Shown here piece by piece: positions 10,395 through 40,391 of a stretch of DNA of 63,962 bases. The notes below the pieces were generated by a model. The model ran no database searches, was not told where the DNA came from, and worked only from the letters and a program-made list of their open reading frames with translations. Made by a program: the position numbers and the translations under genes. Where the stretch lies: positions 124,001 through 187,962 of the forward strand of contig BAAIJX010000044.1 in NCBI GenBank assembly GCA_054600435.1, read 5' to 3'. Source of the stretch: Neophaeotheca triangularis. Taxonomy: Eukaryota. Every line of letters starts with the position of its first letter. Within the stretch, counting starts at the first letter, position 1.

Positions 10395-10495
10395 ACTGAG
10401 AGGAAACCATGATTCAGCTAAGAAGGAAGAAGTGGGGCGAGCCACGAGACTTATAACGTTAGCGTCGAGACGACGCTAAGCTAGAAGAGGGATAG

Positions 10496-19400: not shown

Positions 19401-19510
19401 TAGCTGTGTTCTACATCGCGGTCTCTCGCGTAAAACGGCTTAACGACTTAATGTTCGAGTAGACTTTCGACCTCGAGCGGCTCTAGGCTATAGGTAGTGT
19501 TAGCGCTAAT
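16468..19510 (+). pseudogene. Helitron RepHel middle: HUH Rep motifs and PIF1-family helicase
   Basis: De-RIP RFEFQGRGSAHVHG (16559-16600), GRAGTGKS Walker A (~18074-18097), IIDEKSM (~18314), FGDFWQLPP (~18431), QFPIKLAYALTIHKAQG (~19300), FYIAVSRVKRL (~19410). Confidence 0.88.
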
Positions 19511-19945: not shown

Positions 19946-20041
19946 CTACTCCCCTTCCATACTAGCGTCGTCTCGATGCTAACGTTATAGGTCCCGTCGC
20001 ATTCCCACATCTCTACTCATCATGACTCTTCTCCTTTCGCG

Positions 20042-20635: not shown

Positions 20636-23600
20636 GTAGGTTATCCTTAGGTTCCCATGTGTTTTCGCTTATGGTGTATCTTTTCCATTTCACGAGGTAG
20701 TTCTGACCGTTCTTGTCTAGAATCTTTTCGACCTCGTACTCGGCTTCTTCCTCTAGTAGATCGTGGTGAAAGGTGTCTTAGATTGGTGTTTCGGGGTCTA
20801 CTGGTTCAAGCAAGGATATATGGAAGACTGGGTAGACTCTAGCGTCTTTAGGGAGTTAGAGGAGGTAGTTAACTTTTCCTCTTTGTTCTTTAACTAGAAA
20901 CGGTCCGACTTTGACATGGTCTAGTTTTCGTGTTCGTCTCCTTGTCTTTAGGTTTTTCGTAAGTAGGTACACCTTATCCCCCTTCTTAAGCTAAGGTGCT
21001 GTTTTGGAGTCTTTATGTCTTTATGACTCGAGTCGCTATTACGACTATGTAATTTTGTCTTTCGCCTATTTATGTGCTTCCTATAGCTACGAAGACGTTT
21101 GTAGGGCCTTCTCTACGAGTGGTCCTAGCTTTAGTTCCATAAACATGTTTAGATGTTTTCTAAAGTTTATATAGAACGGAGTCATGCCTATCGTTTCTAA
21201 GGCATTGTTGTTAAGTACGAGCTGTGCTATAGGTAAGAGCGCTACCTAATTGTCCTGAGCATAGTTAACGTAATGTCTCAAGTACGTTTCGAGGGATTGG
21301 TTTAAGCGTTCTGTTTGTCTATCGGTCTTAGGGTGAAATGCTGTCGAGAGCTTATGCTTCACTCCTATTACTAATATTAAGGTCTTCTAGTAGTTAGATG
21401 TGAAGAGCTTATCTCTATCCGTAATTAGAACCATTAGAATGCCGTGTTATCGTACTAATCTATCGAGGACAAGGTATCCTAGTTCTTCTACGGTAATTGT
21501 CTCGTTATAGGGAACAAAATGTGAATACTTCGTGAGTCTATCGACTATAACTAGAACCGAATCGTAGTCCTTATGTGTCGATAGGTCTTAGGACCTTAGT
21601 AGTTTGACGATGAAATCCATTGTGACCTCGTTCTATAGTAGATCTAGTGGCTCCTAGAATTGAAGATTTCCATATTTAGCATGTCTAGAAGCCTTGTTTT
21701 GTTAGTAGCTTATACACTTCTTGATGTATTCTAAGACCTTCTATCTCATTCCGGGAAACACAAAGTTACGCCTAATGTGTTCTACTATTCTAGCGATTCC
21801 TAGATGTCCGTTAGTAGGTCTATCGTAGTAGTCTTAGATGCACTAGCGTTCCTTTTCGTTCGGAACCCTGAACTTCCCGTGTTCGATAGGGAATTCTTTA
21901 GTGTTATCCTATAGTACCTATAGTACTAAGTTAAACTCCTAAGGGTTAGCGCTTAGGCTTCTATCCTTATTAACCTTTAGTATACGGTGTTGTTATGGAA
22001 GGTAGCCTTCTATGTAGTCGCTTCTTCTACTTAGCGCGTCAGCGCGCCCATTGTCTTTTCCGGGAGTGTAGACTATGTCGAACTTGTATTGTCTAAGTAG
22101 CTCTAACCATCTACATTGCCGGCATGACAATTCCTTAGTTATTATGAAGTATTATAGGTTCTTGTGATCCAAGTAAATAGTGAGTCCGGTTACTCCTTCA
22201 CAGTACACTCTCTAGTATCGTAATGCTATAACGATTACGAGTAGTTCTTTATCGTAGATCTCGTAATTCTGTTCCGCTAGTGACATCTTTCTTGAAAAGT
22301 AAGTGATAGGGTGTCGTTTGCTTTCAACCTCCTACGTGAGGCAAGCCCCTATCACTCTATTAGAGGCGTCGGTTTCGATCTGAATTGGTTTCTTGGGGTC
22401 AAACATCCTTAGCGTAGGAGCGGTTATGTATGACTCCTTAAGTTTGTCGAATGACTATTGTTAAATCTTTCCCTATACGAATGGTGTGTCCTTTTTCGTG
22501 AGATTAGTTAGAGGCATAGCGAGCCTTCAATAATCCTTCACGAATTTCCGATTGTAGTTAGCTAGTCCGAGGAATGCCTAGATATCCTTGACTGACTTAG
22601 GTGTCGGCCATTCCTCGATCGATTGAGTTTTCTTCGGGTCTATTCGGATCCTAGTGGTGCTGATCACAAAGCCTAGAAAGTCGACTTCCTTTTTGTAGAA
22701 CTCGCATTTCTCTAGTGCTGTCCTGAAATCTACTTTGTTAAGTCGTTCGAACACGGCGTGTACGTCCTTAGTGTGCTGTTCTTGTGATCCTTTCGTGAAG
22801 ACTAATATGTCGTCGATGTAAGCGATGACAGTGATGTCGAGTAGGTCTCGTAGGATGTCGTTAACGAGTTGTTGACAGGTTGCTAGGGCGTTTATGAGTC
22901 CTATAGGCATAACCTGGAATTCGTAAAGTCCATAGCGCGTTCGAAAAGCTGTTTTCCACTCTTCCCCCTTTACTATTCTGACTGAATAGAATGCATCTCG
23001 GAGATCGATTTTAGTAAACTAGTGTGAACTAGTGAGTCGATCCCTTATCTCGTCGATGTTAGGTAGTGGATAACGGTTTTTTGTGGTAATCGCATTGAGT
23101 CGTCTGAAATCGATAACTATTCGTAGTTTTCCTCCTTTCTTCAGAACAAAAAACGGTGGTGAAGCGGCTAATGAAGTGGAGGGTCGAATCCATCCTTTCT
23201 TCATTTTCTCATCTAGCTATCGTCGTTACTCTTCGAGCTCTTTTTCGGATAGCGCGTAAAGTGGCCCCCATAGTATTTTCGTACCGGGCTGAATGTCGAT
23301 TCGGTGGTCCTATAGTTGATGTCTAGGTAGAGCGGCTGCTCCTTCCTCTTCCTAGAAAAGGCGCTTCCATTTTCTAAATTCTCTAGGGATATCTAAAGGT
23401 GCGTGACTTCTTCCTTCAACTCTTACTTGTTAGTCTGTTTAGGCTAGTTCGGTACCTATAGAGTCCGATCCAATTCGTATTGGTATCGTGGTCGATTGGC
23501 GATACGTTTCGTTGATCTACTTTCTCTTATCTACCGTCGATCGCTACTAGCGCGTAGGGTAGGTTGTAGTGACGTAACTACACCTATCGAATATGAGTAC

Positions 23601-24005
23601 TCGTTTTCTCTAATCCACTATAGGATTGTGTCGTTCTAGCCAAGGTGTACCTAGAACGATGTCATGTCTGGCTATAGGCATGACATCCAAGATAACACGC
23701 TCGTAGTACTTCTAGAAGACAAGTGGTAGCGGTACTGTTTCGCTATCCACGTTAGGTAGTGATGAGCCGTCTACGGCTATCAATTCGTACCCGCCATCTG
23801 TTTTCTTCTAGGTAGCTAGCCTATGCTGACGCACGAACGTTTCCGAGATAAAGTTTCTACTAGCTCTAGAGTCTATTATGGTAAAGGTTTCGTATCCGTC
23901 GACAGTACATGTTGTTTGGAAGACTATTCCTAATGCTTATTAGTGTTAAGCATTTGTGTTGTTCAGTTCCTAACGCTCGCTCTTAGCGATAGGTCCTATT
24001 CGTTT
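20541..24005 (-). pseudogene. pol: pol of D
   Basis: RT ORFs 22578-22910 and 23019-23204 match B pol. Confidence 0.93.
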
Positions 24006-26218
24006 TTTGAGAAGTAGGTAGATAAATCCGCTGTCTCGAGAGAGACTTCCTAATAAAGGGGTCCGTCCCGAGGTTTAATCGTGACTTTTCCTTGGATTGC
24101 GTGTATAGTGATTGGTCCTCGTGTGGTTACTTTAATGTGTCCAAGGATGATCTTTCGGTCGACTAGTAGTAGGAATTTGTCGCGTGGTACTATCGTCTAT
24201 TGATCTAAGGAGTTCTGTGCTTGTTTCTTCATTTCTTATAGCATGATTTCCTCTTCTCTCTATCGCTCTTAGATGAGTTGGAATTCTCTATAGCGATCCC
24301 TGACTGTCTTAACTCGTTGTCTCATCGTGTATAGGATACGTATCCTATCTAGCGTGATGTAACCGTTCTCTCTATGGAATGTGCTTCCCATTAGTGGCCT
24401 GTCCTGGACAAAAGTGGCAGTATCGTACTCGACGTCAACTTTGTAGTAGTCCTAGAACATTGCTCGTAATCGTATGAGTATGGCTTCAAATTGGTTAGGT
24501 TCTAGGCGTCGTTTACCTTAGATCATTAGGAACACTTCTTCGTACGACCGTGCAATGTGAATGACCATTTTCTTGATTGGGTTTGGTCCGTGCACAATAA
24601 ACTCTACTACATCGTTGTCGTCTGGTTCGTCATCGTCGGTGTAGTCGTTTTCGGAGTCGTCTTCGGAATCCGTCACTGTCGTATCTTCTTGTAATCCTAG
24701 GATCTCTAGAGGCATAGATAGTCTAAAGGGGCTAATCTCCGGTGTTAGTACGATCGTAGTGAGTTCCGGTGTCTAAGATATGTCTTCATTTTCTGAGTTA
24801 GGTGTTAGTAGTGCCATCATTCTTAATGGTGCTTGGTTTTCTTGTAGTTTGTCGTCCTCCTATGCAAATAGAGGTAGGGACCTTCCTCGGGCTGCGTTGC
24901 CGTCGTCCCTTGACTACTGTAGTGGTTAGCGTCTCGACATCATGTTGAGTTCCTTCTGAGGTTTACGTAGTTGCTCAAGTTCCTCCTCTACTTTAGCCTT
25001 GATCCTATGATTTAGGTTTACTATCTGATCGGCTACTTAGACTATAAGGTTGTAGTGTTCTTCCGTCCACTCCTTATAACTAACTAAGTCGTCGTGAAAC
25101 TCTCTAAGCTTCTAGAATTGCTCGATTAGTGCGTCCGTTTCGGACATTAAGGTAACTTGTTCAATGACATTTACTTCCTTCCGAGGTTTAGTAGATAAAC
25201 CGTTAGTGATTAGTCCTTAACTCTTGTGTACCAAGTAGTAATCCCTTTCGTAAAACCTCTAGTGAAGTTCGTCGTGTTTGTCTAGGTCGTTCTTTGATCT
25301 AGTGATGTCGTAAGCTCCGCGGCTCTTATCGGTAGGAGAGTCGTTATCCTATCGGGTCAAAATCGCATTAACCTCCTGTCGTGGGCACATCTGTTTCCCA
25401 CGGTAGTCTCGTGCATAGTGCCCTATTTTGTAGTAGTTGTAGCATTCCGGTCCGTTCCGTTTCTTGCCTAGGGCGTTCTGTTTACCCCGTCCTCCATCCT
25501 TGCCTTTCCTAGGATGTTGTTACGTGGAGTCGAGTTCTATCGCATTAGGGTCGCGATGTTACTAGCTGACAGGCCGGCTGCCGGTAGCATAGCTAGTTCG
25601 TCTACGAAATTGTCTAGTATGGCGTTTTTCTATAAACCGTTCGTAGAGCGCATCGTTAACCTCGATCGCCGCCTTGATCATGCCGGCGAGAGTTGACTGA
25701 TCGCTTCCGTGACGTATAAGTTTATCCTTCACGTTGTCCTTGAGTCCTCGATAGTATATAGTCATGAGAGTATTGTCGTCCTAGTCAGTCTTGGCTAAGT
25801 GCTCTTGAAACTTAGCGGTGTACTAAGAGGTAGACGTTTTCTACGTGAGGTGTTGAATCATTCGGATAGCAACTTGTCGATCGTTGCTCAATCCGTAGAC
25901 GTTATAGATGACCTTAATAAAAGACTTCTAGTTCGAGAACAGTCCTTTAGGGTCGATTCGTTCTATAAGGAAATCTATAAGCTTTAGGCGGATCTAGTGT
26001 TAGGCTTCTCCTCGAAGGAAAGAAGCAGTAGTGAGAGGTTGCTTCTACTCACTAACGCTCTCCATGAGAAAGAACATCATCATCTAGTTGACCTAGTCGT
26101 CTAACTTGTTGCGTTTACTGTAGAAGTAATCCGGTTTAGCAACCTTATTAGTAGCTATAGTCGATACTCCTCGTTAGGTGCTAGCGACGCTTGCGTCTCG
26201 GTTATCGGATAGGGACAT
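23996..26218 (-). pseudogene. gag: gag of D
   Basis: ORF fragments 24518-24715 and 25562-25765; ATG at 26218 just downstream of the 5' LTR. Confidence 0.9.
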
Positions 26219-26258
26219 ACTTGCCTATTGATCTCTCTTTCCTAGAGGGTGTTCAAAG

Positions 26259-26693
26259 TGTTACGATCCTATAAGGTAGTCTTATAGGTAGAGCTTGTAG
26301 CGGAAGAGGAGAGATATCGAAGAAGGCTGGTAAGGGTGTTTCCTTTGTCATAAGGATCAAAGATACGTGAATAGTAGTGGTAGACCTTTCAGTAAGATTG
26401 TAACATGAGTTGAACACAAACACCTATCTAAGAAACTCGGTCATGATATATACATAGGAGATTTGTGTGATTAGTCCTGATTAGTCTTACTTAGTTATAC
26501 TGAGCACCCTGATCACTACTGAGTAGTCCTACTTAGTTGTGCTTAGTAGTCCTTAGCAGTTTAAGTAGTACTGAGCAGCTCGCTTAGTTCCGCGCTAAGC
26601 CGCTTGCTTAGTTCCCGGGCGCTCCCACTAGCCTACACTATAGTGTGCTAATCGTTTGTTAGTGTTTCCGTCACATGTGTTATGTTCGTAACA
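26259..26693 (-). repeat. 5' LTR of D
   Basis: Repeat of 19511-19945. Confidence 0.95.
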
Positions 26694-28123
26694 CTAATAT
26701 GCGTCTCTAAGACTACGAACGGCGACGTACCTAACTCCTTATCTCTACTAATATAGCGATAACCTAAGGAACCTCTACGTAATTACGAAGTGCCCTCTCC
26801 TAGCGAGTCCTCTCTACCTTTTAGGATTAGCGTTAAACTAGCGGTACTGTTTAACCGGAGTAGGAGGAAGATCTCTATACTAGTAGTCGGCCCCCGAATA
26901 GATTTTTAGGTGTCTAAACCCTTTCTAATAGAAACCTATTAATGTTAGAAAATACATCCCTCTACTAGCGTTACGCTACTATCGCTACTTACATCGCGTT
27001 TTTCTCCTAACAAAAATTCGCAATTTTTGTTAGGTAAGGTTTGTCTTATGTTATGCTAGGTAAGCTATATAAGTTAACCCTTACGAATTCTAATCTTCCT
27101 TCTATGTCCTATTCTTTTTCTATTCCTTTCCCTAATATAAACTATTCTTTTTTGTTATTAGTATAGCGTCTCATGAATCTTAGAAATATCTATAAACCCT
27201 TAGAACTTAGGAAGAATATAGCGAGGCAGTTAAGTTATATAGTGAATTTAGTATAGTTAAGCAGATTAGTATGCCGCGCGAGCGCGGACGACATTTATTG
27301 TCATATATAACTCTTAAAAAAAACACCTAAGGACCTATACACAGCGTAACTACTAGCGTATAGCAAACATAGCGTAGACAACAAAGACTACCCATATAAT
27401 GACCGACGAGTACCTAGCTTAATCCTCGTACTTCCTACCGTCATAATAGTAGCGGCTACACTTACTACGCCTAGCCTTTCTCTCGAAGTTAACCGCCTAT
27501 CTAGGAGTGTAGACATAGTACTCTACGGCCGTAGTAGTACCCTTACTATGATAGTAAGAGAACGCTAGAGCGTATAGAGTAGATACTATAGTGTCCTCCT
27601 AGATATAGCTAACATATGTAAATCGGTAGCGATTCTTAGCGGTTATGTCTATTAAAACAGTTAGCTTTTAAACACTCTAATTTTAAATAACCTTAAGGAA
27701 TTAAACTTACCGGTCTATTATATAGGGGTAAACATACGATAGAAGGAACCCGCCCTACCTATAGTAGGATAGCGCTCGATAAAGGTCGAGCTAGGGGGGC
27801 GGCTAGGAGTATAGCGTGTAGTAGGAGTTAGGGTCCTAGAGGGACTAGTAGAGGCGGTAGGAGTAGGGGTAGACGTAGGGACCCTAAAGGTAGTAGTCGG
27901 AGTAGGGGCCGGAGTCTAGAATAGACTAGTAGCGCTAGCTACGAAGAGGTCGTATAGCGGCGCTACGAAGACGCTAGGTATATAGGGGGAGGGGGCGGCC
28001 GACGAAGCGCGTACTAAGACGCTAGTAAGGGGGGGGGGACGCCTAGCTAGGAGAAGGAGAAGGGGGGGGAGACTAGTCGTCTCTACCCCTAGGAGCGAAA
28101 CTAGGCGATAGAGAGCGAGCTAG

Positions 28124-28478
28124 TATCGAGCGGCGAGAGCACTCGAGAAACTAGGAGACTAGTTTTGCTCGGGGAGGTGTTGTTCATAATAGTTGTGAAT
28201 AATGTAGTAGGATTAGGAATTAGGTGTAGTTAAGAATTAGGGATTGTTCGTAACGGTTACGAATAATGCGTTAGGGGTCAGAAATCAGTTAGGTCGGTTA
28301 TAGTGTATAGAGGCTAATTCAAGTAGTCGTAATTCATTCTATGTCTCTCTGTCTAGGTAGGTGTCTAAGATATAAGTACTAGTGTAGGGAGAGGTATAGG
28401 TATGTGAAGGGGGTAATGATAAAGCAAATACCGTAAAACCAGTATGCCTACGAATGTAGTATAGGAGTTACCATGACA
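28124..28478 (-). repeat. 3' LTR of E
   Basis: Repeat of 40037-40391 and 13531-13885; contains two copies of the palindrome motif. Confidence 0.93.
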
Positions 28479-28502
28479 TCCCTCCCTAGCTAGAAAGTCT
28501 CG

Positions 28503-31500
28503 TCACTCTATAGTAGCCGCGCTACCCTAAACCACTATTGAGTTCTCCTTATCCTACATTTCCTCTATAAGCTCCTCCTATCCTACTAGTATAGCTCCCC
28601 TCTTTCCTTTATCCTACGGTAGTAGAGCGGAGCTAGAACTTTCTAAATAGTAGAACGACTTGTTCTGAAACACCCTTTTCTCTTCGTCTCGCTAATATGC
28701 CTAGGCGAGCTCGTACGCCTTAATAGCGTCATCCCGGATTTCCTGAATATACTTCCGGACGTGATATAGGCTCTCCGTAGTAATAGTATGTAGTACTTAC
28801 TAGATATTAGGGCTCGTATACCGCAATTCGCTAATAGCTACTCTAGATAAGGCATCCTGTACTACTAGATATAGGGTCGCGGGAAATGGTACATGAGGAG
28901 CTCTATACTTAGTAGTGTAACTAGAGACACTTAATAGGCTAGGCACGAAGTCGTGGTGTGTAGTAGTAATGTCGCTCCACTTTCTACTAGCGGCATTCTA
29001 AAGGTACTCATGGTCTCGGTCGATTCCTACGAACTAGGGTAGGATAGTCATGCGTTAGCGAACGGCTTTTGACGTAGTAGTACTATAGGGTAGGCGTGGA
29101 TTAGAAACGCGAACTTCGAAGGCCTTATAAGGGACCGGCTACCACTTTAAACCCTAGGCTAAGAGCTAGTCTTTTAGTAGGTTCGTGTTATCGATAGCTA
29201 TAATCTCTTTCTTATAGTCTAGATTGTTAGCGACAAGGAAGTTCGTCTACTCCTCTAGGCGCTAGTGCATCCCCTTGACCACTATAATGTAGTCATCCTC
29301 GAACTTATTAAGGATACTAATACTACCCTAAATAGTGTACACGCTAGTGCCGTTATTCTATGTAAACACCGGGTTCAAATCGATGTGCCTAAATCTAGTA
29401 GAGTCTCTAGGGTACTAGTTCTTAGTATAATACAGGTAGGATACTAGCTAAAGTAGGCTATTATCGCGTAAGAGAGCATATAGTAAGATCAGTACCGGGC
29501 TCTAGCGAAGGTACTATTGAATTAGGCTGTAGTACATGTTCCTATACTAGCCCTAGTTAGACATGTTGTTTTATAGGTAGACATTATACATACTGAACTC
29601 GCTTTTAATTAGGTCCTTAACCTCTAGTAGCTTAGGGAATAAATCCGGAATGTTAATAGTACCGTTCCTTTCCTATTCTTTACGCTAGGTAATAGTGACG
29701 CCGAGTCCTTCTACAATCCTCGCTTTCTAGTCCGTGTCGAGGTAGCGTATCACGCCGGATTCTACTAGTTTGTACACGAAAGTCTCTAGGTCATTAACGT
29801 CGGCCGAGATCCCTAGTAGACGTTAGACTTCAGTGTTTAGAAACTAGCGGATATAGCTATAAACGATGTTTTTCTAGGATTACTTTAGGAGCTTCGCGAT
29901 ATAGTAGATGTAGTCATTAGTCTTCTTACTATCTTTCCCTTAAATAACTAACCCAAGACTCTATACTACTAGCCTTCGGTAGGTCGCGTACACGCTATAG
30001 TAGTAAGCACTATAGCTAGCGTATAAGTCTATACGATCCCTATCTTCCACGACAATATGGAAACCGGTTCGCTAGTCGTTATTAGCCTTAAGCATAACCC
30101 GTAACTATAGTAAGGCTATCTTGTCTACCTTATATGTGTATCGGCCGCCGTAGAGACTACCGCATGTAGCATTACTAGTAAACTAGGCCACCATGACTAC
30201 TCGGATCTCCTCTAGCGTTAGAGAGGGCAACTCGCTAAGCCGGGGTCCTCGTACTACTCGTGTTAGGGCTATACCTAGGGGTATAGCTAATATGCCTAGG
30301 GGCGGAGCTAACATTCCTACACTAGTAGACCGGGCATGAGTACGAGTACGAAGGGCTAAGGTAGTAGATATAGGTATAGGCGAGGGCTACGGTAGCTAGT
30401 GATATCCCTAGAGCTAGCGACGAAGCTCCTCCGACATAGACACTATAGATACTACATCCTCCTTAATCGTAGACATTAGTAGTATACTAGTGTTTCGAGA
30501 TTGCGGCTATCCTATAGGGCTTAGGGAGATAGTACTAACGAAGCGCCCTTCTCATCGTGGGGTCTCTAGGGCTTTAGGTGTCGTTAGGGTAGCGGGATAG
30601 GTAAGGAAAGAGAGCTAGCTATCCTGTCCTTAGTATAGGGCGTAGTCATTTAGGCGCATCTTTTTATATTTATCGACTAGCTCCCCTACTATGTTCTATA
30701 GCTCGTTAGTAGTCCGCTTAGTCGTAAACTTAGATACCTAGTCTATACCTACTACATGATTAAAGTCGGCCTTAGTGTAGAAGAACGCGTAGAGTAGTTT
30801 CCCTTTTCTACTAGTCAGTTGACTTATAGGAGTTTCCTTAACAAGCCTATGTATAGTCTAGATACTAGTAGTAGCATATAGCTTCTAGAACATCTACTCG
30901 GATGTCTAGGCATATTTAGCGAGATCAACGAATCCCTAGGACACATTCTCTAGAGCCATGAAGATATGGTTAATGGTTTCGGAATTGATGGCTTCGGCGG
31001 CATTGACCGGCCTATACGAAGAGAGGAAGTTCTCCTTTCGAGTAATGTATAGGTTGCAATGGCTATAGGTAGCTATGTCTTTAACCTTCCTAAACTCAGC
31101 TCTTTTCAGGGCCTATATAGGGTCGCTTCGTATATAGTTATCTACTATATATACTAACATGTCCTAGTCTTCGCCTACTTTATGTACTGTCTTAAGTATA
31201 GCGAGCTACGTAGTATCTTAGGCGCGTAAGTTAGTCATAGTAGTGATCTTTTATAGTATCTCCTTTATAGTGTTTTCAAGCTACACTCTAGAAATGCTCA
31301 AGGTGTATCGCTATATGTCGAGTGTTAGAGCTCCCTATTCGCTAGTCGCTCCTTAGGTTTAGTAGATGCTCGACTAGTTAGTAGACCTCGCTACTATAGT
31401 GTTATTAGGCGTAGACGCGGTCGCGGGCGTAGCTAAGGTAGTAGTAGGGCGCGTAGTGGCCTAGCTACTACGAGTAAGGCGAGGGCTTTTAGGAGCTACT

Positions 31501-31583
31501 AGTTCATTCGAACTACCTAATCTAGAGCTAGCTTAGGAACCCGTATGTAGGCGCTTTAGAGTAGCTACTTGCTTAGGTACTAT
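28503..31583 (-). pseudogene. Accessory ORF3 of E (~1026 aa): low-complexity N-terminus, Cys/His motif, C-terminal PhyH-like 2OG-Fe(II) dioxygenase domain
   Basis: Single frame of 3081 nt whose internal stops are revertible by single C/T or G/A transitions. De-RIP motifs: EFSMYDVHLR..GW.RNMYHSLIQQ, VSYPYYTK, FRHIDLN (HID at 29387-29379), IQGSISILDE..DDC..VVKGMH, PVPCKAFEVRVSNPRLPHG...R.R.TILPWFVG. TGA lies 25 nt before the 3' LTR. Confidence 0.8.
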
Positions 31584-31605
31584 AGTTAGTAATCTTAATC
31601 TTAAC

Positions 31606-32080
31606 TATAGGAAAAAGAGAGAGAGAGAGATGTGAAAGTAAGGAGAAGAAGAAAAGTAGAGTTAGTTACTCGGTATGTCGCGCGCTAAGATGTGTCGGGT
31701 ATCGGTGTTAGTATTAGTGTTAAAGTGAAAAGGTGTTAGTAAAGTCGTAGGTTTAGGCGAATGTGAAGTAAGGAAGTAGGTATAGGCACTAAAGGACGGA
31801 GGTGTCGGAGTAGTAGGTACTAGAGATATCGATAAGGTTAAAGAGGTCATAAAGGTTAGAGGGAGTAGCTACTTCAAGACTTGTCTAGAAGTGAAGCTGA
31901 ACTACTCGAAGGTTCTCGTAGTAGTACTAATAACAGCTAGTTAGCTAGATGTAGTATATTTAGTGTTAATGATGTCTTGGTGTGAGAAAGAGAAGAAGGA
32001 GTAATAGTAATAGTAGTGGTTACTATTAAAGAGAGAGGAGAGGTAGAGGGAGTAGAGCGGAAGAGGAGGCCTCTTTTATA
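31606..32080 (-). promoter_or_regulatory. Putative internal promoter and 3' splice acceptor for ORF3
   Basis: TATAAAAG (32080-32073) followed by a CT-rich tract; branch-like actaac (~31665), ~50-nt polypyrimidine tract and AG at ~31607, about 25 nt upstream of the ORF3 start. Confidence 0.55.
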
Positions 32081-32210
32081 GGTAGCTACGTTAGCTAGTA
32101 GAGTACGTGTTGACTACATGTTACTAACTCATGCGCTAGTGATATAAGTAGCGACTACATGTTGTTAGCCGACACGTAGCATGTAACACTAAAGTGTCAC
32201 GGAGGTAAAG

Positions 32211-32687
32211 GCATTATTTATAATAGTTACGAACAATGTGACGAGCTCGGCGCGTAACGCTAAGAATTCATAGGGTGAAGGGAGACATTATTCATAACGG
32301 ATGTGAACAATATAACGCGCCCGTAGCGATAACGCTACATCATAGGTTAGTAGTAAGCCTTATTCATAACGGATGTAAACAATGTAACTAGGCCGCGACA
32401 GCGACACTATTATAGGATTCGTAGTGTCGAGCTCAGTATTATTTATAACGGTTACGAATAATGTGACGAGCCTCGTCTACACTACTAGGACTCGCGGTGT
32501 TAGGCCTAGCATTATTCATAACGGTTACGAATAGTGTGACGAGCCTCGTCTACACTACTAGGACTCGTAGTGTTAGGCCTAGCATTGTTTATAATAGTTA
32601 CGAATAATGTGATGAGCCTCATCTATACTACTAGGACTCGCGGTATCGGGCCTAGCATTATTCATAACGGTTACGAATAATGTGGCA
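32211..32687. repeat. Array of 7 palindromic 25-27-bp repeats (CATTGTTCGTAAC-G-GTTACGAACAATG consensus) with ~45-50-bp spacers
   Basis: Cores start at 32211, 32285, 32357, 32436, 32509, 32582 and 32655 (period 72-79 bp). Confidence 0.9.
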
Positions 32688-32690
32688 ACA

Positions 32691-35600
32691 CTAATTTTCA
32701 TTAGAATCTAGGTCCCCAAATTGCTTATACTCTATTAGGTCGTACTAAATACTAGGAATCGAGATGAAACTAGTACTACTCTATCTCGGTACTAGTATAG
32801 TATTAGTAGTCGGTTGTAACCGCTAGCTCCTATGAGGCCCTTCCTATATAGCTAGGACAATGTCCTTAGGGTTAGATACGTTACCTCTAGACATCGAGTG
32901 CTACTCTTCTACTAGGTCTACGTCGTCTTTATCTTATATCGCGAGTGTATTAGGCCTTAGATAGAATAGTTTCAACAGTCGACTAGTATACGGCTTATCT
33001 AGTACTGTCCCGTCAAGCTCCTCGAGATAGTACGAGCCTATATTCTCCTAGACGGTTTTGATGCGATACGGACTAAGCTAGCGAGGGGTGAATTTACGGT
33101 TTGCCGTCATATTAGTATTACGAACCGAGTCGAATAGTAACACTAGATTACCGACATTTAACTACTCTAGCCTTATCTAATAAGTCTTATCGAAGTACTC
33201 CTTGTTGAACTTGTAGTAGTGCTATAAGCGTAGAAGGGCTTTATCTATCTTCTCATCCTAACGTTCGAGCTACTTCATCCGCGCTACTAGTAGGTCTTCC
33301 GTTGTTTAAATGCCGTTCTAGTTAATAGTGTACTAGGTTAGGAATAACAACTCTACTAGTAAGACAGGCTCCTTACTATAGATCACAGCTACTAGAGTTA
33401 TACCGGTAGTAGCTCGTATAGTAGTCCTATTAGCCTAGAGCGCGCTATAGAGTAGGTCTGGCTACGGTCGTCCGGTATCTCGACTCGCTTTAGCTAGCGC
33501 GTTAACGATAGTCAGGTAGCCTCATTCTACTATACTATTAGCTTACGGGTAATATAGCGAGATCATGATGTCTTGGATACTATATCCTTCGAGTAGGACA
33601 GTAGTCTACCCTTAGTTCTCTAGGCCTCTATTATAGACTAGTTTCCCGAACACTCTATGTCTAGTCATGATATCCTCGTAAAGGAAGCGAGCTAGCCCGC
33701 GGCTCTCGGTATTACGTAGTAGTTAGCCTTCTACCTAGCCGGACACGTCTTCCCGGGTAAGGGTAATGTACTAGAAAGTATAGGATTCTAGCATTCATAC
33801 TAGGTCGACAGCTTACTTCCTACCCACTACGTTTATGTAGATAGGGTGTAGTGGTTCTTCTAATCGGTTCTATGCGTATAGCTAACACTCCCTATAGGTT
33901 TTGACATATACTATAATAGTATTGTACATGCCTTCCTACTAGTACCTGTCTACTACTTTCTAGTATGTCCCTTCTCTTCTATAGTGACTACCCTTATCAT
34001 GAAGTCCCTTTATTATCTATAGTCGGTTCTACTCTCCGTCTATCACGCGAGTTAATAGCTAGTTCCTATTCATGTAGCGGAATAGTTAGTCGTTACGGAC
34101 TAGGAATCGTATCGCTTATCGCTTAAATGTCTAGAACTCCGATTTGGATAGGTCTATAGGCCTTCGTATAGTTATGAGCTAGTAGGCGACATTTTGCGAG
34201 TACTTAGAGTAGGTAGAGTTGAGCACATTATCGTTAGTAGGTTCCCCCTCCCTATCGGAAGGAGTCGAAGCTCTATCTTCGTCGCTTACGGGTATTAGGC
34301 CCTATACTAGGAGTAACCCTACTATATAGGTAGACACTCGATTTATGTTACTAGCATCTGTTAGGACCGGCGCTAGGGGTAGCCCTACCGCTAAGGCCGG
34401 TACTCTATTTCTACTAATAGTAGATGTTAGGCCTAGTACCGGGAGTAGCCCTACTACTAAGGTATACGGTTTGTTTTCGCGACTAGTAGGCGTTAGGCCT
34501 AGTCCTAGGGGTAGCCCTACCGAAATGCTGTCGAGATAGACGTTAACCTAGTCGTCGATGTCTTTAGTATTAGTCGGCCTATTAGACTTCTAGGATAGGC
34601 CGTTAGCGATAATGTTTTTCGTACTAGCGATGTGTCGCATGTCGAAATCAAATAGTTAAATCTAAGCTAGCTAGCGAGTTACTATAGTATTTAGCACGTC
34701 TAAGGCAACCCTATTAAGCTAGGTAACTAGCGTGTTAGCGTCTATTTCGACCACAAACCTCGTACCGTAAAGGTATAGCCGTAACCTTTTAAGAGCGATC
34801 ATTAACGCCTAGCACTCGAGCTTAACAGCATCGTATTTCTACTCGCTCTCATTCTAGAGACTACTATCGTACTAGATAACTTGTCTTTTCGCGCTAGCAA
34901 CTTCTTATTATAAGTAAAGTCCCTAGCTAGTACCGCACGTATTAACCATAAGAACTAGTTAGCCTATATCTACGCTATATTTAACTAGGGCCACAATCGG
35001 GAATTTCATTAGCTACTCTTTTAGGTCCGCTATTACTACGACTTGTTCCCGTCTCTAGATAAAAGGTACATCTTTCTACATAAGCGCAATAATCGGTCTC
35101 ATATACTATACAAATCCCTAGATCAACTATTTGTAGTATGTGTATATTCTAATGAAGCTATAAGCTTCGCGTAATGTACGACACTTAGTCTACTTAGCGA
35201 TAGCTTCAACCTTTAAGCGCGATAGCTTCGTACCGTTAGACATATATATAAAGCTGACGACCTCAAGCTCCTTAGAAAGGAAGTGCGATTTCCCTATAGC
35301 GATAGTACATCTAGCTCGCTCCATGTCCGCAAGTAGTTAGTCTAGTTTCCGGATATAGTTATAGACTAGGAGTCTAATACTAGGTAAAGGGTTAGGGTCG
35401 CCCTAGGAGTCACTACGATCGCTAATAGCGATAATGTCATCGACATATGGGATGGCGTCATGTAGATATAGTACTATGAGCATCTACATCATGACTCGGT
35501 AAAAGATGGCTACCGAGTTTATCTAGCCTATTAGTAAGGTTGTCTGCCTTAGGAGCCCTAATGGAGTCATGATGGCTATCATGTCGCGGCTTTCTTCATG

Positions 35601-36750
35601 TAACAGATTTCGTCATATCTAGAGAAAACGTCGTATAGTGAGAGGAGTAGTCTACCTGTAATATAGTAGACGAAGCTTATGAGATCTGGCGGCATTATAG
35701 CATCTCGAACTGTAACCGAATTTAGAATAGTAGCTAAGTTAATTAGCCTATGTTTGCCGTTCTTCTTTTTAACTAGAAACTAAGGATTCTAGTATTGTCC
35801 TTAGCTATACTTAAGGACACCGGCTTTTAGTCAGTCTTCTAACATCTCGACGAGCTCTATAGATAAAGCTTTCGGTATGGGATATGTTTTAGCCTACTAG
35901 GCTTTATGGGGTACCATTCTCATCTTGACTAGAGGGTATATGTCTTCGTAGATTATGCTATACTCCTTGAAATCCTACATAAGTATTAGCTCATAGGCTA
36001 TTAACATCGATTCGAACAGTTAATGTTCTTCTAGTAAGAGCATGATGTCAACTATTACTCCTACTATTCGCTCTAGGGTCAATCTATAGCCCCTTAGCTC
36101 TTATGTGTATTATAGTTCGAAATAGCCATTATACTTAGAGTAAGCGATAAGATCTTTTAGTATGTTCTTAATCTAGCGCTCTATAGCTTTCTTTCGCTAA
36201 TCTAGCTATCTACTAGGAATCTTAGACAGGATAGTACTCGAGTCGTCGATAGACACTACCTTATCCGCCTTTCGTTTAGCTATAGTCATGACACTAAAAT
36301 TCTCCTTTAGTAGTGTAGTAGGATCGGAAGCGAGCGCTATAAGTTCTAAAGGTTATATACTTCGTAAGAGCTTCACACTATTCATAGACATACTCGATCT
36401 CTATATGTAGGAGACTCTACCTAGAGCATTATTCGTAGTAGTTATGAACAATACTCGGTTCCTAGTCGTAGAGTTAGTAGAGTGCCCGGGTCTTACGTGA
36501 CTAGAGGGATTGTTTATAGCGGTTACGAACAATACTCGGGTCCTAGTCGTAGAGCTAGTAGAGCGTATAGATATCACGTGACTAGAGGCATTGTTCGTAG
36601 TAGTTACGAACAATGCTTAGGTCGTCATAGTGTTATTAGTCGCTTTACGAATAGTAGGATTGTTCGTAATAGTTATGAACAATGATTTACTTAGTTCTTA
36701 GTAGGTATCGGTAGTAGCAATCGAACCTACTTGTCTACCCTACCTTTTAA
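32691..36750 (-). pseudogene. pol: pol (RT-RNase H-integrase) of E
   Basis: MAKRKADKVV (~36280), YVDD, HxxxxH...CxxC integrase zinc motif (~33890-34000), DLVHMP...AREDVSGWVEG, RKFTPRWLSPY; at least one small indel. Confidence 0.88.
36426..36684. repeat. Four copies of the same palindrome inside the 5' end of E pol
   Basis: Cores at 36426, 36507, 36588 and 36657 (spacings 81, 81, 69, all multiples of 3); encode LF.T..NN repeats in the RT frame. Confidence 0.85.
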
Positions 36751-39357
36751 CGAATGAATAGAGGATGCGCTCTTATCTACATATACTATATGTATACTAA
36801 CACTATTAAGGGAGAAATGGTCTCTAGCTTTAGAATCCGAGCCTACTAGTCGACGAATTCCTATACTAGGGACAAAGTCTGTAGTCGCTAAACTATCCTC
36901 GCTAGTAACCTAGTAGGTGACTTTACCTAACGGATTCCTCTGAACTTCGAGGGAAGCGCGATAGGCATATAGCTCTCCGAGGATGTAGGGTTTTGATAAC
37001 TACTCTACTACTAGTATTAGTGTACGAATGCCGACTTAGCTGACCTGAACGGGCGCGTTAGGAACCCACTTAATAAAGGTGACCGCATCTCTATTCACTA
37101 CTATAATGCCTAGACTAATAGAAGACGGCAACCTCGTAATTAGTAGTCGAGCGCGCTTAGTAATGTCTCTCGTCATGACATTAACATCCGCGCTAGAGTC
37201 GAGGAGTATAGTTACGTTAGTCTTCCTAATCCTCATCTCGTAGACTAGGGAGTCGTTACGATAAACTAGGTCCTCTCCTATAAGATCATCGATGTCACGA
37301 GCGGTTATATAGAGTAATGTAGTGTTTAATGTAGTAGTATTCCGTTAACGCCTATCGACCGAATCATGAGCTACGGTAATAGTAGGCAACACGGAAGTAC
37401 CTCTAGTAGTAGACTTCTTCGCTTCGTAGGCGAGACGCTATTACGTAGTAGTCATGTCTATTTCTCGCTATATATTATTAGCTAACCCCTTAGGTAGTAG
37501 GCTAAATAGTAGCTTCTAGACACCCGGCATCTTCGCTAAGACGTCTATACGGTTTATAGTAATATCGCTACTAAGGAGTATCTCTAGTATCGTAGCATCA
37601 TCGTACTAATTCCAGATAAGGACATCGAGGAGCTTCGTATGTCTCGAGGCATACTACTTTATCACTAGTAGCGCTAGCCGTTACTAGTCCTCGTCATTAG
37701 TGTCCCTTTCCTCGACTAGCCGATTAATTAGCGAGTCGTAGGGAATAGTCTAGCTTCTCTTATAAGCCGCGCTGTCTACTAGCTTCTCGTACTCGCTAGG
37801 CCTCGTCACATAGACTTTAGGAGCAGCTCGCTTCTTATACACTCTCGTGTCCGGGTCTTGAACTAGCCTTAGGCTAGATCGAGTCTACATTAGATATAAA
37901 GAGGCGTCGTCCTCGTCCTTAGAGGTGTCGGAATAGGATAATAGAGGGAGTGTAGTTATAAAGCGAACTACGGGCCCTTACGTAGCGATAGGCACGAACT
38001 AGTTCTCGTCCTATTCAATCTTCTACTTAATAGTATCGAGCCGGTTTTCCCATAGAAGCCTTTAGAGTTCATCTCCCGGGTTCTAAATAGATCCCTATTA
38101 GATGCGTTTACTACTTAGGTTAGAGTACACGAGTCCCTTATTAATAAGCTCGAGAAATCCGGGGTAAGTCATCTATCTATATAGGCCGCTACACATAAAG
38201 CAGCCTCCTAGCGCCGTTCTATAGGTAGTATTAGGAGCGCCATAACCCTAACCAGGATAGTATATATAGTTGTTAAAATTAGAGGTAGTAGTAGTAGGGG
38301 CGTAAGTAGACTGTTCGGGAAAGGAAGGTTATAGAGCTACCTAGAAGACATTAGTCATAGTACTAGCTAGAATGTTAGACATGGTAAATCTATAGTAGCC
38401 TACATTCTTAACCATAATAGCTAGGTCTATAGCATTCAACTTGAGCGTCTTAAACTTAGCCACTAGTTCGTCTATTTCCTTTTTAGAGGTAGGCTATTTA
38501 GGGAAATTAGGTATAGGACATCCTTTACTCCCGAAAGCTAGCGCTAGGAATGCCGTAGTAGGGACTAGCGTATACACGATAGACTTCTCGCTAGTCTCTA
38601 TATAGGCTATCGCGTTATGAACTAAATTTAACATCTCTAAGGATTAGTTAGTATAGACCTTATCCTCGATAGCCCTAAATAGTTATCAGTACTCGATAGA
38701 CTCGCTAGGTATAAGCGGATTGATCTAGAACTACTAGATGAGACGCTCTTATAAGTTCTAAGGCAAACTACGGAGGAAGTACTTTACAATCTCTAGTCCC
38801 CTAAGAGGGTACCCCTAATCTTTAGCCTTATAGACAATGCTCTCGAAACCGCGAACATACTCTAGTATCCTATTTAGATAGCTAGTAGCTTTACTCTTAG
38901 CCACGAAACCTACGAGTACTTCTATACTTCTAGTAAGCTACTCTAAGTCGAAATCCCTGAACTTGACCTTTATAGTAGCGAAGATATCTACTAACGAGCC
39001 ATTATACTTGAGGTCCGATACCTAGGCCTAGACCTCGTCGCTAATGTAGCTGTCGAGTAGTTCGGCTACGCGATAGGAGTCGAACCTAAACCGCACGCAC
39101 ATCTTCTTATACTTCCGCATAAAGCTCGTAAGGTTACTACTATCGAAGTAGGCTACCCTAGACTCGTAGGGGCTCGGGGGAGGCGCTATAATCACATACC
39201 CTAGGGTATTAGTAGGACGCGATAGTAGGGACGCCCTAGGGCCGTCCCTACTAGATCCTAGAGTGAGCGCGGGGGTAGATAGTGCTAAGGAAGTAGTAGG
39301 CCCTACGTCCTATATGTCTTCTAGGGTAAGGGAAATATCGAGAGGGGAGTTAGACAT
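36727..39357 (-). pseudogene. gag: gag-protease ORF of E
   Basis: ATG at 39357 in frame with the protease LLDS(G)ADVNVM (track ORF 37036-37236); pol begins in the -1 frame near ttaaaag at ~36745. Confidence 0.8.
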
Positions 39358-40036: not shown

Positions 40037-40391
40037 TGTCGAGTAGCGAGAGTACTCGAGAAGCTAGGAGACTAGTTTTGCTCGGGGAGGTATTGTTCAT
40101 AATAGTTATAAACAATGTAGTGGGATTAGGAATCAGGTGTAGTTAAGAATTAGGGATTGTTCGTAATAGTTACGAATAATGCGTTAGGGGTTAGAAATTA
40201 GTTAGGTCAGTTATAGTGTATAGAGGCTAATTCAAGTAGTCGCAATTCATTCTATGTCTCTCTATCTAGGTAGGTGTCTAAGATATAAGTACTAGTGTAG
40301 GGGGAGGTGTAGATATGTGAAGGGGGTAATGATAAAGCAAATACCGCAAAACTAGTATGCCTATGAATGTAGTATAGGAGTCACCACGACA
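40037..40391 (-). repeat. 5' LTR of E
   Basis: 355 bp, TG...CA, followed by TSD ctag at 40392-40395. Confidence 0.93.

Follow-up and report, generated by a model that had tools for sequence, protein, structure and literature searches.

To our knowledge, transposon-encoded dioxygenases so far comprise TET/JBP, carried by DNA transposons of fungi, and AlkB, carried by Gypsy elements of orchids and also found in plant viruses. TET/JBP genes in fungal DNA transposons were reportedly noted in an earlier report, from 2014. In Ty3/Gypsy elements and retroviruses, env-like third ORFs are cistrons of their own that follow pol and precede the polypurine tract or 3' LTR. Excerpts of PMC12730594 describe TET/JBP dioxygenase genes carried by Kyakuja-Dileera-Zisupton, Helitron, Plavaka and other fungal DNA transposons, and give HxE in place of HxD as the hallmark of the PE type. 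An AlkB-type 2-ODD ORF acting as an m6A RNA demethylase is reported in Ty3/Gypsy elements of Phalaenopsis in an excerpt of PMC9289625, where it is read as a counter to host surveillance, and the abstract part of PMC5408684 describes bdelloid rotifer LTR retrotransposons which capture additional ORFs that are shared between diverse retroelement types. The gene discussed here, a PhyH-like ORF, had been proposed in a first, sequence-only reading of this DNA, which knew of no earlier description in fungal Gypsy elements. We also found none in the literature, neither in fungal LTR elements nor in Helitrons, and the excerpted part of PMC4595289, on Blastomyces Gypsy elements, mentions no such gene.

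The window, that is, the whole stretch of 63,962 nucleotides of Neophaeotheca triangularis DNA that was analyzed, contains a Ty3/Gypsy-type LTR element of 12.3 kb (element E, 28124-40391, minus strand), in which the following features were found:

40037..40391, minus strand: 5' LTR of element E, 353 nt at 93% identity to 28126-28478
36865..39198, minus strand: gag/protease region, degraded (tblastn with residues 255-1037 of ORF1 of the relative L022, E 1.75e-19)
32955..36298, minus strand: pol (RT, RNase H, integrase), degraded and split into three pieces (L022 ORF2 by tblastn, E 5e-88 and 1e-75)
31584..32954, minus strand: spacer separating pol from ORF3; contains tandem repeats (73-nt units, 32413-32703; direct repeat family D10, self-BLAST)
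28503..31583, minus strand: ORF3 relic, 1027 codons with 66 stops, same sense as gag-pol (translation and stop counts)
28623..29789, minus strand: conserved Cys/helical module and predicted PhyH-clan Fe(II)/2OG oxygenase domain, codons 599-987 (phmmer, window-free profiles)
29379..29387, minus strand: H733-I734-D735, putative HxD iron ligands, retained (H and D columns invariant in alignment A1 and in 41/41 rows of A3)
29085..29087, minus strand: codon 833, TAT (Tyr), at the column of the putative distal iron-ligand His (100% His in 19 A1 homologues)
29052..29054, minus strand: Arg844, candidate 2-oxoglutarate-binding Arg (invariant column in A1 and A3)
28479..28502, minus strand: 24 nt from the ORF3 stop to the 3' LTR; the purine run AGGGAGGGA at its end is a candidate polypurine tract
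28124..28478, minus strand: 3' LTR of element E, pairing with the 5' LTR

The LTRs (353-355 nt) are 93% identical, lie in direct orientation and have ends of the TG..CA type, allowing for RIP changes. CTAG at 40392-40395 equals CTAG at 28120-28123 on the other flank and the fifth base differs, which reads as a target-site duplication of 4 bp, or of 5 bp with a mutation. Element E is collinear with ORF1 and ORF2 of L022, an intact relative (tblastn), whose Pfam matches follow the order PR, RVT_1, RNase H and integrase, and the read-through translation of its own pol (P0005) matches RT_RNaseH (4.9e-11) and then Integrase_H2C2 (4.2e-06). By these matches, element E has the order gag-PR-RT-RNase H-integrase. 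The aspartyl protease matches of L022 lie in its ORF1. The spacer between pol and ORF3 measures about 290-860 nt in intact relatives, and the purine run named above directly abuts the 3' LTR of element E. Self-comparison of the window returned no second internal ORF3 copy, only a solo LTR.

Element E is degraded by RIP-like C>T/G>A mutation. Its TpA/ApT index is 1.94 and its (CpA+TpG)/(ApC+GpT) index 0.43, the corresponding values in the flanking genic DNA being 0.79 and 1.14, and RIP-type transitions make up 24 of the 40 mismatches at conserved columns between the window ORF3 and its relatives. The remark in the sequence-only reading that the frame contains only transition-type stops carries no information in itself, because any stop codon can be reached from CAA, CAG, CGA or TGG via C>T or G>A. 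The informative observation is that the stops falling at 100%-conserved columns all replace W or Q (5/5).

The coordinates and anatomy first proposed for the ORF3 frame hold: it runs from 31583 to 28503 on the minus strand over 1027 codons and terminates in TGA, 24 nt from the 3' LTR. The gene is indeed missed by an ORF list, as had been pointed out, since no ORF of at least 80 aa exists in 24-42 kb of the window. Its 66 stops (52 TAG, 12 TAA and 2 TGA) are fewer than those of the alternative frames, which have 87 and 108. Over codons 1-598 the counts are 37 versus 57 and 65, and in the C-terminal third they are 24 versus 25 and 40, so that the frames are poorly separated there. Homology, rather than stop counts, carries the case for ORF3. 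A phmmer search with the window ORF3 against 1.84 billion proteins gave 386 relatives at E<=1e-3, 36 of them at E<=1e-30 (best E 2.3e-43, P0007), all of which align to codons ~600-1000. Furthermore, profiles built without the window matched the ORF3 frame with 243.7 bits (A3) and with 270.6 bits over codons 599-987, and for the latter profile no match was reported in the other two frames; profile A2, which contained the window row, was circular and was discarded. Because codons 599-987 align collinearly to the window-free profile in a single piece, this part is free of frameshift, and to this extent the earlier claim of an unbroken frame stood. Codons 1-598 showed no significant homology: the N-terminal profile (A4) found no match in the window frames, the full-length window-free profile reached only -3.0 bits over codons 104-279, which is not significant, and the sole support for this part as coding is its lower stop count. 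Codon 1 is ATA, with Met in relatives, the alignment of this column being trivial. Pfam gave no match in any of the three read-through frames of the ORF3 region, and none came from a PDB sequence search with the window ORF3 translation or from a word-indexed search of proteins between 564 and 1798 aa long.

In the window copy, H-I-D at codons 733-735, a distal His at codon 833 lost by RIP and an Arg 11 residues further on had been read correctly from the letters. Tyr833 (TAT) is one C>T from CAT (His), Tyr833-Ser834 stands at the His-Gly of relatives, and the spacing from the distal His to the Arg, 11 residues in the window, is 10 in intact relatives. The string QGSISILDE..C..VVKGMH turned out to be a mentally de-RIPped version of DNA that actually reads X-GSISILNKFEDDYIIVVKGMH. 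With 66 stops, His833 changed to Tyr and 57/104 conserved positions kept, the window copy is nonfunctional and cannot work, and the HxD/E...H triad belongs to the ancestral gene and is broken in the present copy. That this copy is dead could not be seen in the sequence-only reading; neither could the occurrence of the gene outside LTR elements, in Helitron and other contexts.

The named relatives are hypothetical proteins from Leotiomycetes, Eurotiomycetes, Xylona and lichen fungi, and the ORF3 family is uncharacterised and widespread in Pezizomycotina. Many relatives have 850-1000 aa with the domain at the C-terminus, and intact ORF3s of 919-1240 codons were found at six loci. The protein consists of a helical N-terminal domain of ~200 aa without recognisable fold, an acidic disordered linker of ~130 aa, a helical module with CxC...CxxC..H and, at the C-terminus, the predicted PhyH-clan Fe(II)/2-oxoglutarate oxygenase, whose HxD...H...R site is complete. 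Structure searches with the N-terminal domain gave only generic helical hairpins, no closer than E 6.6 in Foldseek and Z 7.9 in VIA, and an ESM Atlas search gave no usable match. One family member, P0103, is fused to a Ulp1 protease.

To look at the fold, an AF2 model of residues 396-900 of the intact L022 ORF3 was used, which stands in for the window copy, itself too damaged for folding (pLDDT 92.5, pTM 0.90). Foldseek matched this model to 248 PDB chains at E<=1e-3, and the matches listed are all PhyH-type, with SnoN/SnoK, EvdO1, EctD, GriE and a proline hydroxylase at the top. In VIA-align, the highest Z among the matches listed were those of YbiU (20.9) and GIG2 (19.1), both DUF1479, and human PAHX and PHYHD1 reached 13.6 and 13.0. 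The model thus points to a double-stranded beta-helix oxygenase of the PhyH clan, dependent on Fe(II)/2OG, as the C-terminal domain of ORF3; both the fold and the HxD...H...R site that had been proposed for it are borne out by this model and by a 41-row alignment. In this alignment (A3), HxD is present in 41/41 rows, the distal His in 40/41 and the Arg in 41/41, and all six intact LTR-borne copies keep the catalytic residues. The invariant Arg, 10 residues past the distal His, is a candidate for the residue that binds the 2OG C5 carboxylate.

Pfam also agrees with the PhyH-like branch that had been suggested. Among 19 relatives scanned, seven matched PhyH (PF05721), three of them above the curated cutoff (22 bits), and 12 had no match. 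PhyH scores were 29.9 bits for P0009, 28.4 for L043, 28.1 for L039, 25.7 for L059, 25.1 for L067, 23.7 for L044, 22.5 for P0015, 22.4 for L049 and 22.2 for P0103, and the ORF3s of L022, L055, L064 and L045 gave no PhyH match. No family member matched DUF1479 at the thresholds used in any scan, so the ORF3 family probably resembles DUF1479 in structure, as modelled, and is not a sequence member; among the literature matches listed, DUF1479 appears in no paper title or abstract. Tet_JBP matched none of the family member ORFs scanned, and the same scans detect it in the neighbouring L049:3-851. A PDB sequence search with the family profile returned two chance-level rows, the best (E 0.12) being an unrelated lactamase-fold protein. 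By the model, the nearest solved structures would be small-molecule or unknown-substrate oxygenases and not nucleic-acid enzymes. A nucleic-acid substrate is therefore without structural support, because the neighbours of known function hydroxylate small molecules, AlkB-type enzymes reach a Z of just 8.2-8.6 and TET/JBP chains are absent among the 50 VIA-align matches listed for the L022 model.

The context of the relatives was analyzed at 79 related metagenome loci. Gag-pol lies upstream of ORF3 on the same strand at 14 of them, shorter or tandem loci counted, and the homologues are not all single-copy host genes; among the 26 loci with at least 5 kb of upstream sequence, gag/pol is upstream on the same strand in 11 and no gag-pol is found upstream of ORF3 in 15. 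LTR pairs enclose pol and ORF3 at seven of the ten loci examined, placing family members inside LTR elements downstream of pol, and L022, L055, L045 and L064/L067 are intact elements with three genes. ORF3 is carried by at least two Ty3/Gypsy pol lineages (L022-like and L045-like), the pol and ORF3 trees are concordant in their terminal clades, and the L022 ORF3 has five full-length variants of 92-99.9% identity. The recurring order of gag-pol, ORF3 and 3' LTR, intact elements included, supports ORF3 as an integral gene of the LTR element, as had been claimed. In intact relatives it is a cistron of its own, lying after pol and before the polypurine tract; a search for pol-ORF3 fusion proteins of more than 1664 aa found none, which is weak evidence. 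Additionally, L022 relatives at 90-95% identity occur in contigs of three soil metatranscriptome runs from one study, which cannot prove transcription of ORF3 because DNA carry-over is possible, and in one more run whose library type is unrecorded and whose RNA status is a guess. In a contig of 7,988 nt that extends from pol across ORF3 as far as the LTR junction, ORF3 shows no frame-breaking indel. No canonical splice joint for ORF3 was seen in the RNA-library contigs. A skip from 8345 to 8492 was rejected as an intron, having the non-canonical ends GC..TC and occurring in one contig only.

The family also occurs with other transposons. Helitron genes adjoin family members at six loci (L039, L041, L042, L056, L058 and L052), a Plavaka transposase lies near one in L057, and others adjoin DEAD/SNF2 helicases. 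In L049, and there alone, a Tet_JBP ORF (L049:3-851, 37.8 bits) is directly upstream of the family member, and L028 is a family fragment among ordinary host genes. AU tests rejected a single LTR clade (p 0.001) and a single Helitron clade (p 1e-54), with context groups that were named after the first tree had been seen and a composition skewed by RIP. Given these varied contexts and the tree against a single LTR-borne clade, ORF3 is confined to no single type of element and behaves like a cargo gene exchanged and kept by transposons. The measurable family copies are under purifying selection: the dN/dS check proposed earlier gave 0.085-0.29 in eight measurable pairs out of 12 tried (0.085-0.21 among the Helitron-linked ones), a set that includes no intact LTR-borne pair, as dS is saturated in these.

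Taken together, we read the window as holding a RIP-killed ORF3, the integral third gene of a Ty3/Gypsy group in filamentous ascomycetes, which would be a cargo exchanged among transposons that encodes an enzyme raising carrier fitness; we give this reading a probability of about 0.6. The ORF3 enzyme would raise the fitness of its carrier element most plausibly by oxidising a host macromolecular mark or factor of genome defence, the candidate targets being methylated DNA or RNA, chromatin or another protein. The TET/JBP genes of fungal DNA transposons and the AlkB of orchid Gypsy elements are the analogues that suggest such a role in fitness and counter-defence, and from them we infer a putative anti-silencing role of ORF3, on bases or chromatin. 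A wider and tentative proposal is that this ~950-aa PhyH-clan oxygenase could be, besides TET and independently of it, a second dioxygenase "weapon" of mobile DNA in fungi, exchanged among Ty3/Gypsy, Helitron and Plavaka-type elements across filamentous ascomycetes, which would rewrite or remove a DNA, RNA or chromatin mark needed by defence (methylation, RIP, heterochromatin). If true, retrotransposons would gain the counter-defence that TET/JBP gives to DNA transposons. In the ORF3 family, an oxygenase branch distinct from TET/JBP and AlkB takes the place of a transposon dioxygenase, intact in LTR retrotransposons and common to Helitrons. If ORF3 acts on a silencing mark, it would amount to an enzymatic counter-defence of a new kind and might point to a new fungal pathway of nucleic-acid or chromatin modification. 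Regardless of the target, ~400 fungal "hypothetical proteins" can now be assigned a predicted fold and catalytic site as well as a context in mobile DNA, and genome annotators should expect Gypsy elements of 10-12 kb with a third gene.

An alternative that we regard as unlikely is that ORF3 is a captured host metabolic oxygenase of small molecules, carried along with no help to the transposon and perhaps serving the host. In this regard, the nearest structures of known function (SnoN/SnoK, EctD, GriE, proline hydroxylase, PAHX) act on small molecules, some loci (L006, L015) have no transposon gene nearby, and in L026 ORF3 is intact while gag-pol has decayed, a pattern that, together with the ORF3s without gag-pol, could reflect host use of the gene. 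However, a useless cargo of ~3 kb would be expected to decay, above all in a retroelement, whereas the ~900-1200-aa architecture and the catalytic residues persist in Helitron contexts as well as in two or more Ty3/Gypsy lineages, with the low dN/dS of the Helitron-linked copies (0.085-0.21) speaking in the same sense, and TET/JBP, Ulp1 and SNF2 or DEAD helicases as neighbours suggest chromatin or nucleic acids over metabolism.

It also seems to us improbable that ORF3 acts in the life cycle of the element and not on silencing, by hydroxylating Gag, integrase or a host factor of translation or RNA processing on which replication depends. Such modification is what ribosomal and translation-factor hydroxylases carry out, and the structural matches of the L022 model include protein hydroxylases (PHD2, OGFOD1, Tpa1 and the EF-Tu prolyl hydroxylase, VIA-align Z 8.5-10.8) and the PhyH-fold subunit of the trypanosome RNA-editing complex (Z 14.7); the long N-terminal domain and linker would suit targeting as well. 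Nevertheless, LTR elements and Helitrons replicate in unrelated ways and share the same gene, so that a common target in host defence would fit better than a step specific to one element.

The possibility that the 3-kb segment is a separate insertion into element E, for example a fragment of another element, could draw on the occurrence of the family in Helitron and other contexts and on the repeat-rich spacer of 1.37 kb between pol and ORF3, but it is very improbable, given that orientation, position and nearness to the 3' LTR are constant in 14 loci, that the window ORF3 stop lies 24 nt from the LTR, that neither 28501-31583 (three read-through frames) nor 31400-40038 gave a Helitron or transposase signal, and that the pol and ORF3 trees match in their terminal clades. 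Lastly, a chance frame in RIP-degraded non-coding DNA mimicking HxD...H...R, for which the similar stop counts of the C-terminal third could be invoked, is refuted by the phmmer match (E 2.3e-43 among 1.84 billion proteins, 386 relatives) and by the window-free profile, with its 270.6 bits in the ORF3 frame and no match reported in the other two.

Read as an integral third gene of a Ty3/Gypsy element, ORF3 resembles the env-like third ORFs in position, and differs from them in its predicted soluble enzyme fold, which contrasts with a membrane glycoprotein. With the PhyH-clan enzymes (PAHX 2a1x, EctD, SnoN/SnoK, YbiU 4rgk, GIG2 6akz) it shares the predicted fold, the HxD...H triad and an Arg ~10-11 residues past the distal His; unlike them, it has ~950 aa, extra domains, transposon contexts and only weak Pfam PhyH scores. 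The bdelloid elements (abstract part of PMC5408684) similarly have accessory ORFs common to unrelated types of mobile elements, although their hosts are animals, the ORF families are others and that abstract part mentions no oxygenase. As in the Phalaenopsis element (excerpt of PMC9289625), an extra 2OG-oxygenase ORF lies within a Ty3/Gypsy LTR retrotransposon; the orchid ORF is AlkB-like, from a plant and a shown m6A RNA demethylase, whereas ORF3 is fungal, has a predicted PhyH-like fold and belongs to a family also common to DNA transposons. Compared with TET/JBP, ORF3 would belong to the PhyH clan (closest to DUF1479 among the matches listed, with no Tet_JBP Pfam match), has ~950 aa with an N-terminal domain of its own, is hosted mainly by Leotiomycetes, Eurotiomycetes and lichen-forming ascomycetes, and has HxD in 41/41 rows, unlike the HxE of the PE type in the excerpts of PMC12730594. 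Like fungal TET/JBP as described in those excerpts, ORF3 would be an Fe(II)/2OG dioxygenase cargo of unrelated transposon classes with signs of transfer between classes, and Helitron and Plavaka are among the carriers of both.

The left two thirds of the window is AT-rich repeat DNA with a strong signature of RIP (C>T/G>A mutation): the indices TpA/ApT and (CpA+TpG)/(ApC+GpT) were 1.94 and 0.43 at 28000-40400, compared with 0.79 and 1.14 at the gene-rich right end. Element E, the carrier of the putative oxygenase gene ORF3, is a 12.3-kb Ty3/Gypsy-type LTR retrotransposon killed by RIP-like mutation, since no ORF of at least 80 aa is left across 24-42 kb. CTAG flanks both of its LTRs, and read-through translation of the minus strand between them gave RNase H and integrase zinc-finger Pfam matches. 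The features, with gag/protease and pol located by tblastn using genes taken from an intact relative, are:

28124-28478 and 40037-40391, direct repeats: LTRs of element E, ~355 nt, 93% identical
36865-39198, minus strand: gag/protease of element E
32955-36298, minus strand: pol of element E
28503-31583, minus strand: ORF3
32209-32703: tandem repeats of 73-nt units within this part of the pol-ORF3 spacer
34295-34522: tandem repeats of 66-nt units inside the pol region
36428-36589: tandem repeats of 81-nt units near the gag-pol junction
13531-13886, plus strand (orientation opposite to E): solo LTR of the element E family, 90% identical

The solo LTR shows that this genome had more than one copy of the family. 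Two more LTR-flanked elements of ~7 kb each lie at 3700-10794 and 19508-26555 (identity within the LTR pairs 98% and 94%); pol-like matches fall at 7199-9238 (plus) and 22023-23207 (minus), respectively, and neither element has an ORF3-like segment or an ORF of at least 200 aa. RIP indices in the region 4000-11000 (1.05 and 0.85) were much weaker than in neighbouring DNA.

The 1027-codon ORF3 frame runs from 31583 to 28503 and contains 66 stops, where the other two frames contain 87 and 108. It terminates in TGA 24 nt short of the 3' LTR; these 24 nt finish with AGGGAGGGA. The sequence-only reading had counted the presence of only transition-type stops in its favour, an argument that adds nothing because it holds for every stop codon. 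Stop counts by themselves are weak evidence for the frame (24 in codons 599-987, against 25 and 40), and it is homology that decides: a profile built without the window matched this frame at codons 599-987 with 270.6 bits and had no reported match in the other two. The motif residues claimed in that reading (H-I-D, a RIPped His and an Arg) were indeed found at their codons as H733-I-D735, Tyr833 (TAT), followed by Ser834, and Arg844. The copy retains 57 of 104 conserved positions; of the 40 conserved columns that it mismatches, 24 differ by C>T or G>A (His833>Tyr and Gly834>Ser among them), and all five stops at 100%-conserved columns stand for Trp or Gln. Profile searches gave no significant homology for codons 1-598, and what backs their coding is the lower stop count (37, against 57 and 65) together with a length that fits the family architecture. 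The window copy is a dead relic, of value as a pointer to its family.

A phmmer search of 1.84 billion representative proteins returned 386 relatives at E<=1e-3, 36 of them at E<=1e-30 (top match E 2.3e-43, 33% identity), all aligning in one stretch to codons ~600-1000; many are 850-1000 aa long with this conserved region C-terminal. The named ones, all hypothetical proteins, come from Coleophoma, Venustampulla, Sclerotinia borealis, Xylona, Coccidioides posadasii, Rhinocladiella, Penicillium, Aspergillus granulosus, Chaetothyriales, Onygenales and several lichen fungi. A few bear an automatic 'PhyH' label, and Pfam PhyH matches were weak (7 of 19 relatives scanned, three of the seven above the curated cutoff); six locus ORFs also matched PhyH. 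One close relative (P0186, 50% identity) is recorded in a moss (Sphagnum) assembly, where it is probably a fungal contig. Another, P0103 (1289 aa), has a Ulp1/SUMO-protease (Peptidase_C48) domain, often present in transposon-borne genes, fused C-terminal of the oxygenase at residues 1121-1225.

For the fold, residues 396-900 of ORF3 from L022, an intact LTR-borne relative, were modelled with a 41-row alignment (pLDDT 92.5, pTM 0.90). Foldseek matched 248 PDB chains at E<=1e-3, and the matches listed are all PhyH-type oxygenases (SnoN/SnoK, EvdO1, EctD, GriE, proline hydroxylase, YbiU/GIG2). A structural search against representatives placed YbiU first (Z 20.9, 277 residues, rmsd 3.1) and Candida GIG2 second (Z 19.1), both DUF1479 proteins of unknown substrate, followed by PhyH-type enzymes at Z 13-15.5, human phytanoyl-CoA hydroxylase (13.6) among them; AlkB-type chains scored 8.2-8.6. 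In addition, HxD is conserved in 41/41 aligned relatives, the distal His in 40/41 and an Arg ten residues after it in 41/41, and the catalytic residues are kept in 6/6 intact LTR-borne ORF3s. Fold and H/D/H/R conservation both bear out the proposed Fe(II)/2OG dioxygenase of PhyH-like type. A conserved CxC...CxxC..H helical module lies N-terminal to the oxygenase core. The N-terminal ~200 residues form a confident helical domain in the predicted fold, for which structure searches gave no informative match, and are followed by ~130 disordered, acidic residues. TET/JBP identity was rejected given the HxD, the PhyH fold and the lack of a Tet_JBP Pfam match on any member ORF scanned; the 50 structural matches listed included no TET/JBP chain.

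A degenerate-pattern scan of metagenome contigs yielded 79 loci, 26 of them informative for upstream context (conserved region preceded by at least 5 kb). Gag/pol lay upstream on the same strand in 11 of the 26, and three shorter or tandem loci (L076, L048, L064) bring the total to 14/79. LTR pairs bracket pol and ORF3 in 7/10 loci examined (no repeat was found in L055 and L067, and one at the contig ends only in L064), with roughly 60-250 nt from the end of the ORF3 homology match to the 3' LTR in the paired loci. This bears out the claim that ORF3 is an integral third gene of the LTR element, downstream of pol in the env position, and not a one-off capture. Several elements, from at least two Gypsy lineages, are intact. 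Among them, L022 has protease in ORF1, RT, RNase H and integrase in ORF2, and an ORF3 of 950 aa counted from the first Met (five full-length variants on record, 92-99.9% identity). In L055 and L064 a single ORF of 2242-2365 aa covers gag-pol, and ORF3 has 1240 and 1158 codons, respectively; L067 has an ORF3 of 1097 codons, and L045 and L048 have gag with Ty3-capsid matches, pol and an ORF3 of 1146 codons. The window pol is closest to that of L022 (42% identity over 934 columns), and L045 pol belongs to a more distant Gypsy lineage than L022. The trees of pol and of ORF3 are congruent in their terminal clades. ORF3 is a separate cistron throughout, about 290-860 nt downstream of pol, and a search for pol-ORF3 fusion proteins found none. 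In L064 (contig ends 1-127 = 12660-12786) and L048 the order is ORF3, LTR region and gag-pol of the same element, which indicates tandem arrays or an assembly closed on the LTR. In L026, ORF3 is intact (8678-11434, 919 codons; identical in L024 and L025) and the upstream gag-pol (514-7849) is in small fragments; the host or another element could have retained ORF3 after retroelement death.

Most of the 15 informative loci that lack gag-pol are not simply host loci. Genes for Helitron Rep/helicase (DUF6570, Helitron_like_N, PIF1) directly adjoin the oxygenase gene in five, upstream on the same strand (L056, L058), convergent (L039, L041) or divergent (L042), and also lie beside it in L052, which has a shorter flank. 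Other neighbours are a Plavaka transposase (L057), DUF6589 (L044), an integrase-like core (L001), a DEAD-box helicase (L043), one with an OrsD (zinc-finger) domain (L059) and an SNF2-type helicase (L002). Neighbour ORFs of L006 and L015 had no assignment in the Pfam scan, L075 has no ORF of at least 180 aa, and L028 is a fragment with a stop, lying among ordinary genes. Helicase neighbours recur at loci without gag-pol or Helitron genes (L002, L043, L059 and, outside the 15 and with shorter flanks, L009 and L017 with DEAD-box genes and L018 with a helicase C-terminal domain); those of L002 and L018 are 59% identical. ORFs of ~1280 aa upstream of the oxygenase gene (L006:4481-8344, L015:518-4354) resemble each other remotely (24% over 448 aa, E 1e-20), lack a Pfam match and may be an unrecognised partner or transposon gene. 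Additionally, a Tet_JBP ORF (L049:3-851, 37.8 bits, cutoff 34.9), ended by the contig edge, lies ~1 kb upstream, on the same strand, of the PhyH-like member L049:1859-4771 (L050 is the same sequence), which hints at a two-dioxygenase cassette at this one locus.

LTR-borne copies fall in scattered positions when trees are built from the conserved region. LTR context requires 11 changes in an 81-row tree, at least six forced by well-supported branches, and six, at least three forced, in a 31-row tree of known context only. The AU test rejected monophyly of the LTR-borne copies (p 0.001) and of the Helitron-linked copies (p 1e-54), with context groups named after a first tree was seen and composition skewed by RIP. 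The window row is only tentatively placed, on a very long branch (1.79). dN/dS was 0.085-0.29 in the 8 of 12 pairs tried with measurable dS, a range that excludes intact LTR-borne pairs, which are too diverged. Contigs from three soil metatranscriptome runs, all of one study, include L022 relatives at 90-95% identity, as does one more run whose RNA status is a guess only. A 7,988-nt contig extends from pol across ORF3 into the LTR junction, and its ORF3 is free of frame-breaking indels, although such contigs are not proof of transcription; no canonical splice joint was seen in the L022-relative contigs.

Members of the ORF3 family encode a conserved predicted Fe(II)/2OG oxygenase that is under selection and has extra domains; at least two Gypsy lineages carry the gene, which also adjoins Helitron genes and others of transposon type. 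The oxygenase would benefit its carrier element. Since elements that replicate by unrelated mechanisms retain the gene, a host process common to them would be a likelier target than a step peculiar to one kind of element. By analogy with TET/JBP and AlkB, the obvious candidate target is genome defence (DNA or RNA methylation, heterochromatin or RIP). We give a true counter-silencing enzyme a tentative probability of about 0.3; against it, the closest solved structures belong to small-molecule enzymes or to proteins of unknown substrate, and L026 keeps ORF3 though its gag-pol decayed. A passenger or host-serving enzyme appears unlikely, and another role in the life cycle slightly more so.

Literature searches turned up no account of a PhyH-like gene carried by LTR elements or Helitrons of fungi; a Repbase consensus may already contain the ORF without comment. 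TET/JBP dioxygenase genes are carried by fungal DNA transposons (PMC12730594) and AlkB by orchid Gypsy elements (PMC9289625). PMC12730594 gives HxE for the PE type, a TET/JBP subgroup, whereas the present family has HxD. Transposon-borne 2OG dioxygenases are a known kind of gene, to which the PhyH-like family adds another branch.
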